Positions 59,237 through 64,000 of a DNA stretch of 64,000 nucleotides are shown here, piece by piece. This DNA is from Candidatus Eiseniibacteriota bacterium. Lineage in GTDB: Bacteria; Eisenbacteria; RBG-16-71-46; CAIMUX01; VGJL01. The translations under genes and the position numbers were made by a program. The notes under the pieces are model-generated. The model was not told where the DNA came from and did no database searches. It saw only the letters and a program-made list of their open reading frames with translations. Where the stretch lies: the NCBI GenBank assembly GCA_041946735.1, contig JBHGAY010000013.1, positions 68,140 through 132,139 of the forward strand, in the 5' to 3' direction. How positions within the stretch are numbered: position 1 is the stretch's first letter; the number at the start of each line of letters is the position of its first letter.

Positions 59237-60907
59237 CTACGGCAGCCGGACGAGGCGCCCGGTCGCCGTCCCGCCGTTCGAGCGGATCCGCACGAGGTAC
59301 AGCCCGCGCGGGACCGCGCGCCCGGCCGCGTCGCTCCCGTCCCAGTCGATCTGCGCCGTGCCTCCGCCGCCGGCCGGCGCGACGCCGTCCCAGCCGCGGA
59401 TCCATCGTCCCTGCAGGTCGAAGATGGCCACGGATGCGGCGGAGCCCGGCGCGATCCGGAAGCGCAGCTCCGTCGCGGCCGAGAACGGGTTCGGGAACGC
59501 GCGCAGGCCGGCGGTCTCGCCGGCGATCGCTCCGGCGAGACCAGGGTCGGCGATGGACGCCGGGTCGTGCGCCGGCACCGCTCCCGTCTTGAGCGCGTCG
59601 TGGCGCCACTGGCCCCAGACGAGCGAGGAGGGGTCGTAGGTGCCAGGCCCGAGGTCCCAGCAGTAGATCCGCGTGTCGTTACAGCCGACCAGCAGCTCCA
59701 GGCTCCCGTCGCGATCGAGGTCCTCCAGCAGCGGGGAGGAGTAGATCGTGTAGGTCGGGTCGGTAATCGGGAAGCCGGGGAGCGAGGAGCCGTCGACGTT
59801 CCACCCGTAGACCTTCCCCGTGTTCTCGCCGATCACGATCTCCGGCGCGCCGTCGGCGTCGACGTCGCCGATCGAGGCGGACGATTTGACCGTGTAGCTC
59901 GTCGGGCGCGGCCAGCCGGGGAGCGGCGAGCCGTCCGGCTCGAACGCGCACACCTGCGAGTCGTTCATGCCGACGACGATCTCGAGGCCGGCGTCGCCGT
60001 CGAGGTTCGCGAGCGTCGGGCTGCTCTCGCAGGAGTACCCGGCGTCGAGAGGCCAGCCGGGAAGGTACGCGCCGGCGCCGTCGAGGACGTGAATCGATCC
60101 GTCGCGCGCGCCGGCGACGATGTCGAGGTCGCCGTCCGCGTCGATGTCGCCCAGCGCCGGCGAGGAGATCGCCCCGCTTTGCCAGAGCACCTTGGGGAAT
60201 CCGGGAAGGTTCGTCCCGTCGCCGCGGATGGCGTAGAGCTGGTAGTCGGAGTTGTCGGCCGTGCAGACGATCTCCGCGATGCCGTCGCCGTCGAGATCGC
60301 CGAGCGCCGGCGAGGAGCGGACGACGTACGGCGTGTGGTACGGGAATCCGGGGCAGAGCGTGCCGTTGCCGCGTAGGGCGTAGATCCCGCCGTCGTTCGA
60401 GCCGAAGACGATCTCCGGATGCCCGTCGCCGTCGATGTCGCCGATCGCGGGAGTCGAGAAGATCATCCAGCCGGTCTGGAACGGGAAGCCGGGGCGGACC
60501 GATCCGTCCGGCTCGAAGACGTGGAGCTTGCCGTCGAAGTTGCCGGCGATCAGCTCGGGTGTGCCGTCATCGTCCAAGTCCGCGACCGCGGGCGAGGAGC
60601 ACTGGTTCACCCATTCGTCAGGACCGAGCGCGTCGCCGAGGAAGCGCGGCCACCCCGGAGCGATCGACCCGTCGTGCTCGAAGACGTAGAGATAGCGATC
60701 CTGGGAGCTGATCACGATCTCGAGCTCGGGGTCGGCGTCGAGCTGGGCGGCGACGGCGGACTGCGAGACGCTGTACGCGGTCGCGACCGGCCAGCCCGGC
60801 TCGGGGACCGGAACCCCGCCGGCTGCGGAGGCAGCGACCCCTGCGAGGCCGAGCGCGACGACGAAGAAGACGGCGACGGCGGGAATGGAGACGCGGAACC
60901 GATCCAT
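59237..60907 (-). CDS. Secreted FG-GAP/VCBS-repeat propeller protein with FlgD-like C-terminal domain
   Basis: Signal peptide, repeated SSPA.GD.DGDG..EIV and PG(W/F)P units, PNPF...WDG. Confidence 0.9.
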   Translation of the reverse strand: MDRFRVSIPAVAVFFVVALGLAGVAASAAGGVPVPEPGWPVATAYSVSQSAVAAQLDADPELEIVISSQDRYLYVFEHDGSIAPGWPRFLGDALGPDEWVNQCSSPAVADLDDDGTPELIAGNFDGKLHVFEPDGSVRPGFPFQTGWMIFSTPAIGDIDGDGHPEIVFGSNDGGIYALRGNGTLCPGFPYHTPYVVRSSPALGDLDGDGIAEIVCTADNSDYQLYAIRGDGTNLPGFPKVLWQSGAISSPALGDIDADGDLDIVAGARDGSIHVLDGAGAYLPGWPLDAGYSCESSPTLANLDGDAGLEIVVGMNDSQVCAFEPDGSPLPGWPRPTSYTVKSSASIGDVDADGAPEIVIGENTGKVYGWNVDGSSLPGFPITDPTYTIYSSPLLEDLDRDGSLELLVGCNDTRIYCWDLGPGTYDPSSLVWGQWRHDALKTGAVPAHDPASIADPGLAGAIAGETAGLRAFPNPFSAATELRFRIAPGSAASVAIFDLQGRWIRGWDGVAPAGGGGTAQIDWDGSDAAGRAVPRGLYLVRIRSNGGTATGRLVRLP

Positions 60908-60948
60908 GGCGCTTCCTCCTGGGAGACTGTCGGCGGCCCGTGATCCCG

Positions 60949-62592
60949 TCACGGCAGCTTCACGAGCGGGACCGACCCGCCCGCGTATCCGATGATGTAG
61001 ACGCCGGGGGGGCACACCCTCCCGTGCGCGTCGCGGCCATCCCACACGAATCCTGCGGCGTCGTCGAGAGAACCCGAGCGGTCCGCCGCGTCGAGCGAGC
61101 GGATGCGGCGGCCGGCGACGTCGAAGAGGACCGCGCGGACGCCGGCGGGGGCGCTCCGGTCCCCGCCCGCGTCTCGGAGGACGATCCGCACCGGCTGGCC
61201 GGCGGCCGACGGGTTGGGGATCGCCGCGAGAGCGCGCCGTGTCGCGGGCGGCGCAATGGCTGGATCGCGATCGTCCACCGCGGACGTCGCGGCCCACGGC
61301 GCAAAGAGGACGTGATCGCCGACCTCGTCCCCCAGCCCGCCGGGATTGGCGGTCGGATGGTAGGGACCGCTCGCATGGCCCCAATAGCTGTTGCGCGCGT
61401 CGATGTCCATCTGCGTCTCGAAGGCGGACACCGCGAGACCGTTGCCGACGAACTCCCCCTCGACCGCGGAAAGACGCCCGCCCATCACGAAGAGACCGCC
61501 CGCCCACTCCGTCGCTTCGTTCCGCAGGACGGAGCAGCCGAGGAGCGTCCCGTTCGTGTCGCGCAGAAGGCCGGCTCCTCCCATGCCATCGCAGCGGTTC
61601 TCGACGACGCGGCAGTCCTCGAGCGCGAAGGCGGAGGCGATCGCGCGAATCCCTCCCCCTTCGAGCGCCGCGACGTTGTCATGAATCTCGCAATCGATCA
61701 GCTTCGCCGCCTCGGCGCAATCCATCGCGAGCGCCCCGCCGAGTGACGCCGTGTTCTCCTCGAACGAGCAGTTCTCGATGCGGGCGGTCCCAAAGGTCAC
61801 GGAGGCTCCTCCGCCCGATTCGGCGGTGTTCCCGCGCAAGACGCATCCGGTCATCGAGGGAGTTCCCGATCCGTCGAAGGCGACGCCTCCGCCGATGATC
61901 GTCGCCCGGTTGCCCTCGAAGACGCAGTTCTCGATCCTGGGGTCGCTTTCCGAATAGAAGAAGCAGACGGCTCCGCCCTGGATGCCGGAGGTGTTCCCGC
62001 GGAACACGCAGTTGCGGAGGACCGGCCGTCCGCTCGCGACATAGAAAGCCCCGCCATGATTGTCCGCCCGGTTCTCGATGAAGATGACCTCCTCGAATCG
62101 AGGAGAGGCTGCCACGCAGCGGACCCCGCCGCCGGAGCAGTACGGTCAGGTGCCCTCCGCAGCTCCGTGCTGGATCGTCAAGCGGCGGATCATCGCGGTC
62201 GAGTCGATCAGGCCGGCCACCTCGAGCACGGAGAGCGTGTCGCGGCCGTCCAGGATCGTCTGCTCCGCCGCGCCGGGTTCCCCTTCGAGCACGAGCCCCT
62301 GCTTGACGGGCCAGATCAGGTTCTCGTAGTAGACGCCCGGAGCGACCCGGATCGTGTCGCGCGCATTGGCCGCGACGAACGCGGAAGCGATCGTCGGCTG
62401 CTCGCTCGGGACGTGGATGACATGCGCGGCGGCGATCCCAGCCGCGCCGGGGAGCGCAGGAAGCGCCGCGAGGATCGGAAGGATCGCGAGGATCGGAAGG
62501 ATCCCGAGGACGGGCAGGAACTGGACCCTCGTGAGGGACGAGAAGCGCGGGGCGATGGCCGCACGCTCCTGCGGGCGGGATTCGATCGACAA
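60949..62592 (-). CDS. Secreted parallel beta-helix/FlgD protein with in-frame TGA at 62146-62148 (candidate selenoprotein, U-P-Y-C)
   Basis: ORF-track pieces 62146..62736 and 60949..62115 share a frame and are separated by one TGA. TTG start after AAGGAG, signal peptide, beta-helix repeats, FlgD tail. Confidence 0.82.
62116..62132 (-). promoter_or_regulatory. Candidate bacterial SECIS hairpin
   Basis: GCGGCGG-GGT-CCGCTGC with the loop 21-23 nt after the TGA. Confidence 0.7.
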
Positions 62593-62794
62593 CGGCTCTC
62601 TCCTTGGTTTGTGTGGGCTCTCGCGTGCGTCGGGTCGCAGGGACATTCGTCGCGCCGGCCGTCCATCCGCGGTGCGGTCCGCCGGCCAGACAGGTCCGCA
62701 GCCGGAGACGATCGGAGCGCCGGAACGAGGATACACCGGCCGCGCGGCGGAGAGAAGACGCTCGTTCGCGTGCGAAAGGCGGGAGACGGAGGTC

Positions 62795-64000
62795 TTAGGG
62801 AAGCTTCACCACTGTGCCGGACCGCGCCGCCAGCCGGACGACGTAGACACCGGGAGCGCAGGGGTTGCCCGCCGCGTCGCGGCCGTCCCAGCGCAGGATC
62901 CCGTCGGGCGAGGCGGCAAGCACGCGCACGCGCCGGCCGGCGACGTCGAACACGGCGCCGCCACCCGCGTCGCAGGCGCGCCCGAGAACGATGCGAACCG
63001 GATCGCCGGCCTTCGAGGGGTTGGGGAGGATCGCAAGCGCGCCGGAGCGCGGCGCCGGGCCGGCAGGCGCCCCCGGATCATCCGCCGCATCCGAAGACGC
63101 CTCCCAGGGATCGAAGAGGACGCGGTCGCTCACCTCGTCGCCCAGCCCGTCCGGGTTGGCGATCGGATGGAACGGCCCCGTCGCGTCGCCCCAGAAGTTC
63201 GCGCGCGCGTCGACGTCGAACTCCGGCTCGACCGCCGAGAGCGCGAGACCGTTGGCGATGAACTCCCCCTCGACCGCCGCGAAACGTCCGTGCAGGAGGA
63301 GGAAGCCGCCCGCCCATTGCGCCGCGACATTGCGCAGGACCGATGATCGGAGCAGCGTGCCGGAAGAATCCCGGAAGTACCCCGCGCCGCCCGTCCCCTC
63401 GGTCGTGTTCTCGACGATCCGGCAGTCTTCCGCTGCGAAGACGGAGGACGAGCCATGCAGCGCTCCGCCTTCCGATGCGGCGCGGTTGTGCAGGAACTCG
63501 CACGCCACGAGCTTCACCCCTTCCCCGCTCTGGAGGTCGATCGCTCCCCCGTAGGTTGCGCCATTGGACTCGAACCGGCAGCCGGTGATGCGCGCCATAC
63601 CGGCCGAAACCGAGACGGCGCCGCCCGCATCGCCGAAGTTGGCGCGAAGGGTGCAGCCGGTCATCGACGGCGTGCCATGCCCCTCGAAGGCGACCGCGCC
63701 CCCCATTCCGATCGCTGCGTTGTCCTCGAAGAGACATTCCTCGACGCGAGGACCGGCGTGCGTGTCGAAGAGGCTCGCGCCGCCTCCGCTGCTCGCCCGG
63801 TTCCGCCGGAAGACGCATCGATGGAGGATCGGCGCGGCGCCGGCCTCGGCGTAGAAGCCGCCTCCGTTGTTCTCGGCGTCGTTGTCCACGAAGATCACTT
63901 CCTCGAAACGGGGAGAGGAGCCGAGGCAGCGGACCCCGCCGCCCGAGCACCACGGTCACATGCCTTCGGCGTGCCCGTGCTGGAGGGTCAAGCGCCGGAT
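62795..64000 (-). CDS. Paralogous beta-helix/FlgD protein with in-frame TGA at 63956-63958 (candidate selenoprotein, U-P-W-C); 5' end outside the window
   Basis: Manual translation IRRLTLQHGHAEGM*PWCSGGGVRCLGSSPRFEEVIF continues in frame into ORF 62795..63898. Confidence 0.82.
63924..63944 (-). promoter_or_regulatory. Candidate bacterial SECIS hairpin
   Basis: GGGCGGCGG-GGT-CCGCTGCCT at the same spacing from the TGA as in the paralog. Confidence 0.72.

Follow-up and report, generated by a model that had tools for sequence, protein, structure and literature searches.

The 64,000-nt stretch of contig JBHGAY010000013.1 from a Candidatus Eiseniibacteriota bacterium that was analysed here (the window; position 1 is its first letter) ends in two genes on the minus strand, gene 1 and gene 2, which are arranged head to tail and carry an in-frame TGA at the same aligned codon. 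The gene 1 frame (60949-62736, minus strand) reads IRRLTIQHGAAEGT-TGA-PYCSGGGVRCVAASPRFEEV, with the TGA at 62146-62148, and the gene 2 frame (62795-63997, minus strand) reads (I)RRLTLQHGHAEGM-TGA-PWCSGGGVRCLGSSPRFEEV, with the TGA at 63956-63958. The initial annotation had reported a single shared TGA in the two paralogs; the peptides that it quoted were reproduced exactly by translation, and a search of both translated frames for a second internal stop or another lesion found none. Both codons lie in the motif G-x-U-P-x-C-x-G-G-G, where U is the proposed selenocysteine (Sec), and the two proteins are 57% identical over 413 aligned residues. The degenerate motif pattern matches twice in the window, against 0.00 matches expected from 100 shuffles, so the motif shared by the genes is not due to chance. 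The features of the locus, including a candidate selenocysteine insertion sequence (SECIS) in each gene, are the following:

60949..62592, minus strand: gene 1, complete read-through coding sequence of 547 codons plus its own TGA stop (60949-60951)
62590-62592, minus strand: likely TTG start of gene 1, with the Shine-Dalgarno-like AAGGAGAG upstream
62425..62592, minus strand: gene 1 residues 1-56, signal peptide as read from the sequence (charged n-region, long hydrophobic stretch, AAA/H)
61393..62415, minus strand: gene 1 N-terminal cap and right-handed beta-helix, about residues 60-400, predicted from Pfam, AlphaFold2 and Foldseek
60952..61233, minus strand: gene 1 C-terminal beta-sandwich tail, about residues 454-547, homologous to the FlgD_ig-like tail of gene 2
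62146..62148, minus strand: in-frame TGA of gene 1, proposed Sec codon (U149), in G-T-U-P-Y-C-S-G-G-G
62114..62134, minus strand: candidate SECIS hairpin of gene 1, nt 15-35 counted from the U of UGA, stem of up to 9 bp, GGU/GGGUC loop, -14.1 kcal/mol (nt 13-40)
62795..64000, minus strand: gene 2, tandem paralog with a TAA stop (62795-62797), its 5' part lost at the contig end, which is the window end
63956..63958, minus strand: in-frame TGA of gene 2, proposed Sec codon, in G-M-U-P-W-C-S-G-G-G
63924..63944, minus strand: candidate SECIS hairpin of gene 2, nt 15-35 counted from the U of UGA, -17.3 kcal/mol (nt 13-40)

With the TTG start, the U of gene 1 falls at residue 149 of a protein of 547 amino acids. 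The contig, C5 in our numbering, ends inside gene 2. Another contig of the same genome (C42 of genome G000; locus L062) encodes in its bases 1 to ~330 a signal peptide and cap that are 54% identical to those of gene 1 and run off the contig end. This fragment is probably the missing 5' part of gene 2, with ~30 codons unassembled between the ends of C5 and C42.

The TGA is kept well beyond the window. Of 101 related genomes searched at the protein level, 37 contain homologs at E<=1e-20, many with one TGA inside the match, and in the aligned homologs this TGA stands at exactly the same column, in G-x-U-P-x-C-x-G-G-[GA]. In alignment A3 (14 sequences, with homologs 26-56% identical to gene 1) the residues T139, U149, P150, C152, G154 and G155 are invariant, and they are the sole invariant block around the TGA; the U is likewise invariant in alignment A4. 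All fetched loci together, which come from the Eisenbacteria phylum and from other lineages, hold 26 distinct sequences with this codon (Sec forms), and it is TGA in 26 of 26. Some belong to records titled 'Candidatus Eisenbacteria' (L111, L181), 'Candidatus Fermentibacteria' (L142) or simply 'bacterium' (L112).

All 206 genomes of the phylum were also searched with a degenerate DNA pattern in which the codon could be TGA, TGC or TGT. Half of its 38 matches are family genes, with TGA in 19 of 19, and they lie in 10 genomes (G000, G005, G007, G010, G015, G019, G020, G022, G023 and G024) that all belong to one order. The remaining 19 (5 TGA, 14 TGC/TGT) are unrelated sequence, such as a valyl-tRNA-synthetase-like zinc finger (L099); 17 of them were verified by translating the locus, and G024:C274 and G071:C2 were judged from 52 nt alone. 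A control pattern set 2 nt out of register gave 13 matches in the same genomes, none in a family context. The TGG variant of the pattern, run over the 35 genomes of the order, gave a single match, unrelated as judged from its 52 nt, and thus no W-P-x-C member of the family.

Several genomes hold more than one such gene. Four Sec forms each are found in G020 and G022, and in G015 two Sec-form genes lie 3.4 kb apart on one contig (G015:C6:470849-474309; L078, L102), which shows that tandem duplication of Sec forms is not unique to the window. At another locus (L051, G020:C39) an 855-codon open reading frame (ORF) encodes two tandem cap-plus-helix modules, the first lacking the Sec loop (GGWVEWTGGGGILC) and the second reading T-U-P-D-C-Y-G-G-A. 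Public protein sets reflect these genes only as C-terminal fragments: in a word-based search the database proteins P0005, P0006 and P0008 start just past the TGA. The expectation that standard annotation would split such genes is thereby borne out, also for the 388-residue piece of the window itself.

Homologs with Cys in place of Sec were found in a scan of one genome per species, whose figures cover the first 120 matches listed, so that the Sec:Cys ratio is that of a sample. Among the matches listed, at least 18 are family members at a hidden Markov model E<=1e-50 (the next best is at 2.6e-7), and of those 18, 14 have TGA and 4 a Cys codon (TGC/TGT). The Cys forms come from records titled 'bacterium' (L131, L135), 'Fibrobacteraceae' (L156) and 'Zixiibacteriota' (L183), and the Cys-form paralogs are uninterrupted single proteins. 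Genomes G206, G207 and G208 each carry a Cys form as well as a Sec form, with near-identical flanks, as in the paralog pair DGS-C-PECEGGA and DGS-U-PACDGGA; in G206 a Met form (L236, G206:C2, locus 1762-1821; GD-M-PDCFGGG), which keeps P-x-C, stands beside them. All five genomes behind the species-scan loci that were searched carry selA. The classical Sec/Cys signature is therefore present, with Cys forms in the minority, and the Sec- and Cys-containing loops are paralogous versions of one widespread family.

The genome of the window (94.8% complete, 72 contigs) has the whole Sec machinery that one would look for, with all four components above the family cut-offs: a tRNA-Sec (72.1 bits; called SeC with anticodon TCA by ARAGORN), selA (478.9 bits, no internal stop), selB (349.1 bits, full-length over model positions 2-575 of 581, no internal stop) and selD (388 bits, with one in-frame TGA of its own). 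Since selA and selB lack internal stops, TGA is not a general sense codon in this genome. The selD gene (G000:C2:108941-109867, L009) is itself a selenoprotein gene, reading ...MAACAG-TGA-ASKIAPGD..., with a G-rich-loop hairpin soon after the UGA. Across the phylum selA occurs in 183 of 206 genomes and in 116 of the 121 of good quality, a tally that takes in G079 (flagged as unpublished), on which nothing else rests; being near-universal, selA makes its co-occurrence with the family uninformative.

A hairpin starts 11 nt past the UGA and is supplied by the codons of x-G-G-G-V-R-C. Genes 1 and 2 are near-identical in the nucleotides downstream of the UGA, synonymous positions included. In alignment A5, which holds the 26 Sec forms, columns 15-23 pair with columns 27-35, with 87.2% of the cells paired, a share that falls to 40-64% if the 3' partners are shifted by 1-3 columns. 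The covariation score of 0.266 exceeds that of shuffled alignments (0.154) and was reached by 0 of 500 shuffles, a test whose significance is overstated by the relatedness of the sequences. The pair 21-29, for example, is CG in 11, UA in 8, AU in 2 and GU in 1, and the synonymous third base of a Gly codon covaries with base 2 of an Arg/His/Tyr/Leu codon. The folding energy of nt 13-40 averages -13.6 kcal/mol in the Sec forms (n=26, range -17.3 to -7.6), compared with -6.1, -7.5, -2.2 and -6.3 kcal/mol in the Cys forms and -1.8 kcal/mol in the Met form (L236). The hairpin, which the Sec forms have and the Cys and Met forms lack, tracks the TGA and not the protein motif. The selD gene of the genome has a hairpin in a comparable place, and the terminal TGA of gene 1 has none (-4.5 kcal/mol, z +1.3).

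Selection acts on both sides of the codon. In seven pairs of genes the ratio of nonsynonymous to synonymous substitution rates (dN/dS) is below 1 throughout, 0.12-0.72 upstream of the TGA and 0.33-0.57 downstream, with dS above 1 in several pairs, which makes those ratios rough; in the two pairs with the least saturation (dS about 0.64-0.71) the ratios are 0.31 and 0.26 before the TGA, and 0.50 and 0.44 after it. The codon is also found in an independent metagenome assembly from another study (run X2), where a 559-nt contig has 0 differences to 61700-62209, TGA included, and a second contig of 1220 nt carries the TGA region of gene 2 and its flanks. Because of this identity across the codon, the TGA is not an assembly error; the independent confirmation rests on X2, the coverage of X3-X5 stopping short of the codon. 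The runs listed for this stretch include none of RNA.

According to domain searches and a predicted model, the product begins with a signal peptide and an N-terminal cap, continues as a right-handed parallel beta-helix and ends in a C-terminal immunoglobulin-like tail. The N-terminus of gene 1, with about 30 hydrophobic residues after a charged part and an ILPILA tandem repeat, is read from its sequence as a signal peptide, and a comparable hydrophobic N-terminus is present in 12 of the 12 complete homologs of A3. Its hydrophobic core, ILPILAILPILAALPALP (window 62440-62520, minus strand, residues ~27-48), comes from a short imperfect tandem DNA repeat, ggaaggatcgcgaggatcggaaggatcccgagg on the plus strand. 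The Pfam model Beta_helix (PF13229), which has a cut-off of 25.9 bits, scores 60.5 bits in gene 1 and 51.7 bits in gene 2, and Chlam_PMP repeats are matched downstream of the TGA. The tail is less clear: FlgD_ig is matched in gene 2 only (E 3.6e-4, under the Pfam cut-off), and PorZ of NCBIfam weakly (15.3 bits, below cut-off). These two weak matches are what was seen of a possible C-terminal sorting domain for type IX secretion. The order proposed in the initial annotation thus stands for the signal peptide and cap before the TGA and the repeats after it, and its FlgD-like tail is a weak match, below the cut-off and confined to gene 2. The AlphaFold2 model of gene 1, built on 14 homologs, has a mean predicted local distance difference test (pLDDT) score of 74, with block means of 85-99 for residues 71-350, and runs from a right-handed beta-helix through a disordered linker to a C-terminal beta-sandwich. 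This model puts U149 and C152 on an extended first-rung loop that is flanked by strands 139-141 and 157-160. The Foldseek matches are generic beta-helix proteins only (6c72, 4ozz, 7bz0, 9ozl and 9cdu; E 4e-5 to 1e-3), among them tailspikes, the alginate epimerase AlgG, PL6 lyases, RbmB, pectin methylesterase and Rhombotarget A. NosD (TIGR04247) was considered as an identity and rejected, at 21.4 bits against a cut-off of 300.

As far as comparison of sequences goes, these results establish that one continuous gene for a secreted beta-helix protein contains a recoding site of the Sec type that is conserved and under selection. The machinery, the TGA and Cys homologs, the purifying selection, the independently assembled TGA and the covarying, Sec-specific hairpin all support the reading that the in-frame TGA encodes Sec and that each gene specifies one whole secreted beta-helix selenoprotein with a putative U-P-x-C redox or metal centre, to which we assign a probability of about 0.87. 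The in-frame UGA would be read as Sec by Sec-tRNA(Sec) with SelB, which would be recruited by the hairpin inside the coding sequence, 11 nt past the UGA; the terminal UGA of gene 1, which lacks a hairpin, would end translation. U149 and C152 may then form a reversible selenylsulfide, and U-P-x-C may act as a redox-active or metal-binding centre outside the cell, so that the Sec/Cys pair would be a redox or metal-binding site on a surface loop. U-P-Y-C and C-P-x-C presumably resemble the C-P-x-C active sites of the glutaredoxin/DsbA type.

Several observations weigh against this interpretation. Cys forms were sought without success in three other searches: the degenerate pattern found none in the 206 phylum genomes, and C-P-x-C-x-G-G occurs in none of the 54 matches of a word-based search with A3 and in none of the best 150 of 167,168 profile matches. 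(In the A4 profile search, which covered 1.84 billion representatives, giant multi-module proteins dominated the matches, and this search could not answer the Cys question.) The hairpin energy is unremarkable for G+C-rich sequence, with z values against shuffles of -1.3 and -2.1 over 28 nt, and -0.95 and -1.47 over 81 nt; three Sec forms (G005, G010, G023) pair in a shifted register with a GGUC loop; and since the stem is made of Gly codons, its conservation is partly driven by the protein. An Rfam scan of 60900-64000 at E<=10 returned no SECIS, only two chance snoRNA matches. To these come the roughness of the saturated dN/dS ratios and the shared ancestry of the A5 sequences, both mentioned above, and the neighbouring genes, which give no functional hint for a redox or metal role. 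Finally, in more distant relatives the Sec column is occupied by W, Y, D, T, G or M, or the loop is missing altogether (a gap of 5-6 residues). Residues other than Cys or Sec at this site had been named beforehand as a finding that would speak against Sec, and in distant relatives they do occur. These relatives do not overturn the Sec reading, because they mostly lack the Cys three residues on and because the search of the order's 35 genomes turned up no family member with W-P-x-C.

The loop itself varies in length among the best 150 profile matches: between 'T-I-x-N-G' and 'G-G-G' it is either short (4-5 residues) or long (10-11 residues), the long version often with [YW]-P. In long-loop relatives without Sec (L027, L030 and L034, as well as the best 150 library matches) a Trp or Tyr often stands at the Sec position before the conserved Pro, as in GDYPDIF, GYWPTSR and LTWPGAF. 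A short-loop relative (L058, G045:C29) has a TGA at locus position 1825 in ...AASGSC-TGA-SGGGLAC..., a C-U pair, with a 7-bp hairpin (-13.5 kcal/mol) starting 12 nt downstream; it is a candidate for a second and independent Sec variant of this loop.

The alternative that survives best accepts Sec insertion and concerns the function of the site, for which it is the main competitor: U-P-x-C could be a structural cross-link that stabilises the first rung, neither catalytic nor metal-binding. The modelled position of the loop between two strands would suit such a role, in relatives W, Y, D or M is tolerated at this position, or the loop is short, and no conserved redox partner gene was found near the 16 family loci. 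We nevertheless consider it unlikely, at roughly one chance in a few, since Sec insertion is expensive and Sec tends to be retained at sites where its reactivity counts, since no residues of the protein are more strictly conserved than U, P and C, and since Sec and Cys paralogs are kept side by side in genomes, which suggests that the two forms differ in function.

Far less probable is that the TGA is read as an ordinary amino acid, either as Trp by a near-cognate tRNA or as Trp/Gly under a changed code. The W-P or Y-P at the aligned position in distant long-loop relatives fits this idea, and TGG differs from TGA by one base. However, the 26 Sec forms never have TGG, Cys codons are what replaces the TGA in paralogs, and the search of the order's 35 genomes for a TGG followed by P-x-C yielded only the unrelated match judged from its 52 nt. 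TGA also serves as the terminal stop of gene 1 and of many homologs, selA and selB have no in-frame TGA, and a TGA-specific hairpin has no role in read-through of this kind.

A little less probable still is that the TGA ends a small secreted N-terminal protein and that the beta-helix is made separately from a downstream start, as gene callers have it when they begin the 388-residue protein at a GTG at 62115, 31 nt past the TGA. Such a break would split one folded domain, which the model shows as continuous over residues 71-350 (block-mean pLDDT 85-99), and would leave a downstream piece with a secretion-type tail and no signal peptide; moreover, the frame is kept across the TGA in 26 of 26 genes, and the Cys-form paralogs are single uninterrupted proteins. 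Nonsense-mutated pseudogenes or a sequencing or assembly error can be practically dismissed: a fresh pseudogene would show a single in-frame stop, and public protein sets hold only truncated C-terminal pieces, but the TGA stands at the same codon in 26 distinct genes, including homologs 26-56% identical and lineages outside the phylum, genes 1 and 2 have no other lesions, dN/dS is below 1 on both sides, and the sequence is identical in the independent metagenome of another study.

The other neighbours of the two genes within the window are a gene for an FG-GAP protein, dxs, and genes for an M17 peptidase and ETF-QO. The first of these (59237-60907, minus strand) encodes a secreted FG-GAP repeat propeller protein with an FlgD_ig-like tail and has AGGAGG upstream; it begins 41 nt past the stop of gene 1 and forms with genes 1 and 2 a small cluster of exported proteins. 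Around the 16 family loci, where 106 ORFs were scanned for a recurring partner gene, none was found except other FlgD_ig-tailed proteins, and the neighbourhoods are heterogeneous.

Compared with known systems, the mechanism of decoding is familiar. As in bacterial genes decoded with SelB and a SECIS, a stem-loop whose apical loop contains G and U begins 11 nt past an in-frame UGA, tRNA-Sec, selA, selB and selD are all encoded in the genome, Cys homologs exist, and the genome's own selD has the same layout. The differences are that the hairpin is the family's own, formed from a block coding for Gly-Gly-Gly-Val-Arg-Cys, that it matches no Rfam model, and that it is a putative SelB-binding site. 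We take its spacing and its G/U-containing loop to resemble the fdhF element of Escherichia coli.

The protein is less so. Table 1 of PMC13188914, a source used here in part, lists thioredoxin-fold selenoproteins with U-x-x-C or C-x-x-U (thioredoxin, glutaredoxin, DsbA-like, peroxiredoxin-like and TlpA-like), which share with the present family the U-x-x-C and the Cys-form homologs, and several of these families are also exported. In contrast to them, the motif here is predicted to sit in a beta-helix loop that runs into G-G-G, and not at the start of a helix, and the gene 1 and gene 2 proteins gave no Pfam or NCBIfam match to a thioredoxin-like domain. The fold and the repeat pattern are those of right-handed beta-helix proteins (PF13229, Chlam_PMP, polysaccharide lyases and epimerases, tailspikes, Rhombotarget A, NosD), and the cap-plus-helix module is very common, with 167,168 library proteins at E<=0.001; in the literature we found no report of such a protein holding Sec. 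The accessible part of PMC13188914 also describes predicted envelope selenoproteins, including an FCYXU-type TonB-dependent receptor (NF049945) and an MtrB/PioB-family outer-membrane protein (NF041027). These are alike in placing Sec outside the cytoplasm and in being predicted by the same comparative logic, and different in being beta-barrels with other motifs.

No NCBIfam selenoprotein model matched P0001 or P0002, which gave only generic repeat, NosD-like and PorZ-tail matches below the cut-offs. PF13229, PF02415, PF05048, PF13860, 'helix' and 'repeat' are absent from the accessible text of PMC13188914, and there is no beta-helix among the new families in the corresponding part of the deep-Sep paper (PMC12013277). 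The covered part of the BSepDB supplement (PMC13326102) contains none of 'helix', 'repeat', 'outer membrane' and 'polymorphic', its family table S2 possibly lying outside that part. Within these catalogues, NCBIfam and the literature, where we found no beta-helix or secreted bacterial selenoprotein of this type, the proposal of the initial annotation that this is not a described selenoprotein class has held up. Most likely, then, this is a new selenoprotein family decoded by the known bacterial mechanism, and it is unusual in its beta-helix scaffold, its extracellular location, the presence of several paralogs in one genome and the scarcity of Cys forms.

The family would place Sec on a fold and at a site, a secreted beta-helix, for which we know of no earlier description. 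A broader picture, which we offer tentatively and hold to be somewhat short of an even chance, is that this is the first family of right-handed beta-helix selenoproteins, displayed extracellularly, and that soil and sediment members of several candidate phyla, with up to four Sec paralogs per genome beside Cys versions, have grafted a glutaredoxin/DsbA-like C-P-x-C loop onto the first rung, giving extracellular Se redox chemistry or metal/chalcogen capture beyond the present catalogues; Sec may here derive from a [W/Y]-P loop and not from a thioredoxin-type site. The long loops with W-P or Y-P raise the question whether Sec entered from TGG or from a Cys codon. The Sec and Cys paralogs that stand side by side form a natural comparison for what selenium adds outside the cell, and a hairpin found in Sec forms only offers a clear-cut example on which to train bacterial SECIS models for G+C-rich genomes. 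Since gene callers split members of the family, these candidate phyla have more selenoproteins, and more intact surface proteins, than are annotated.

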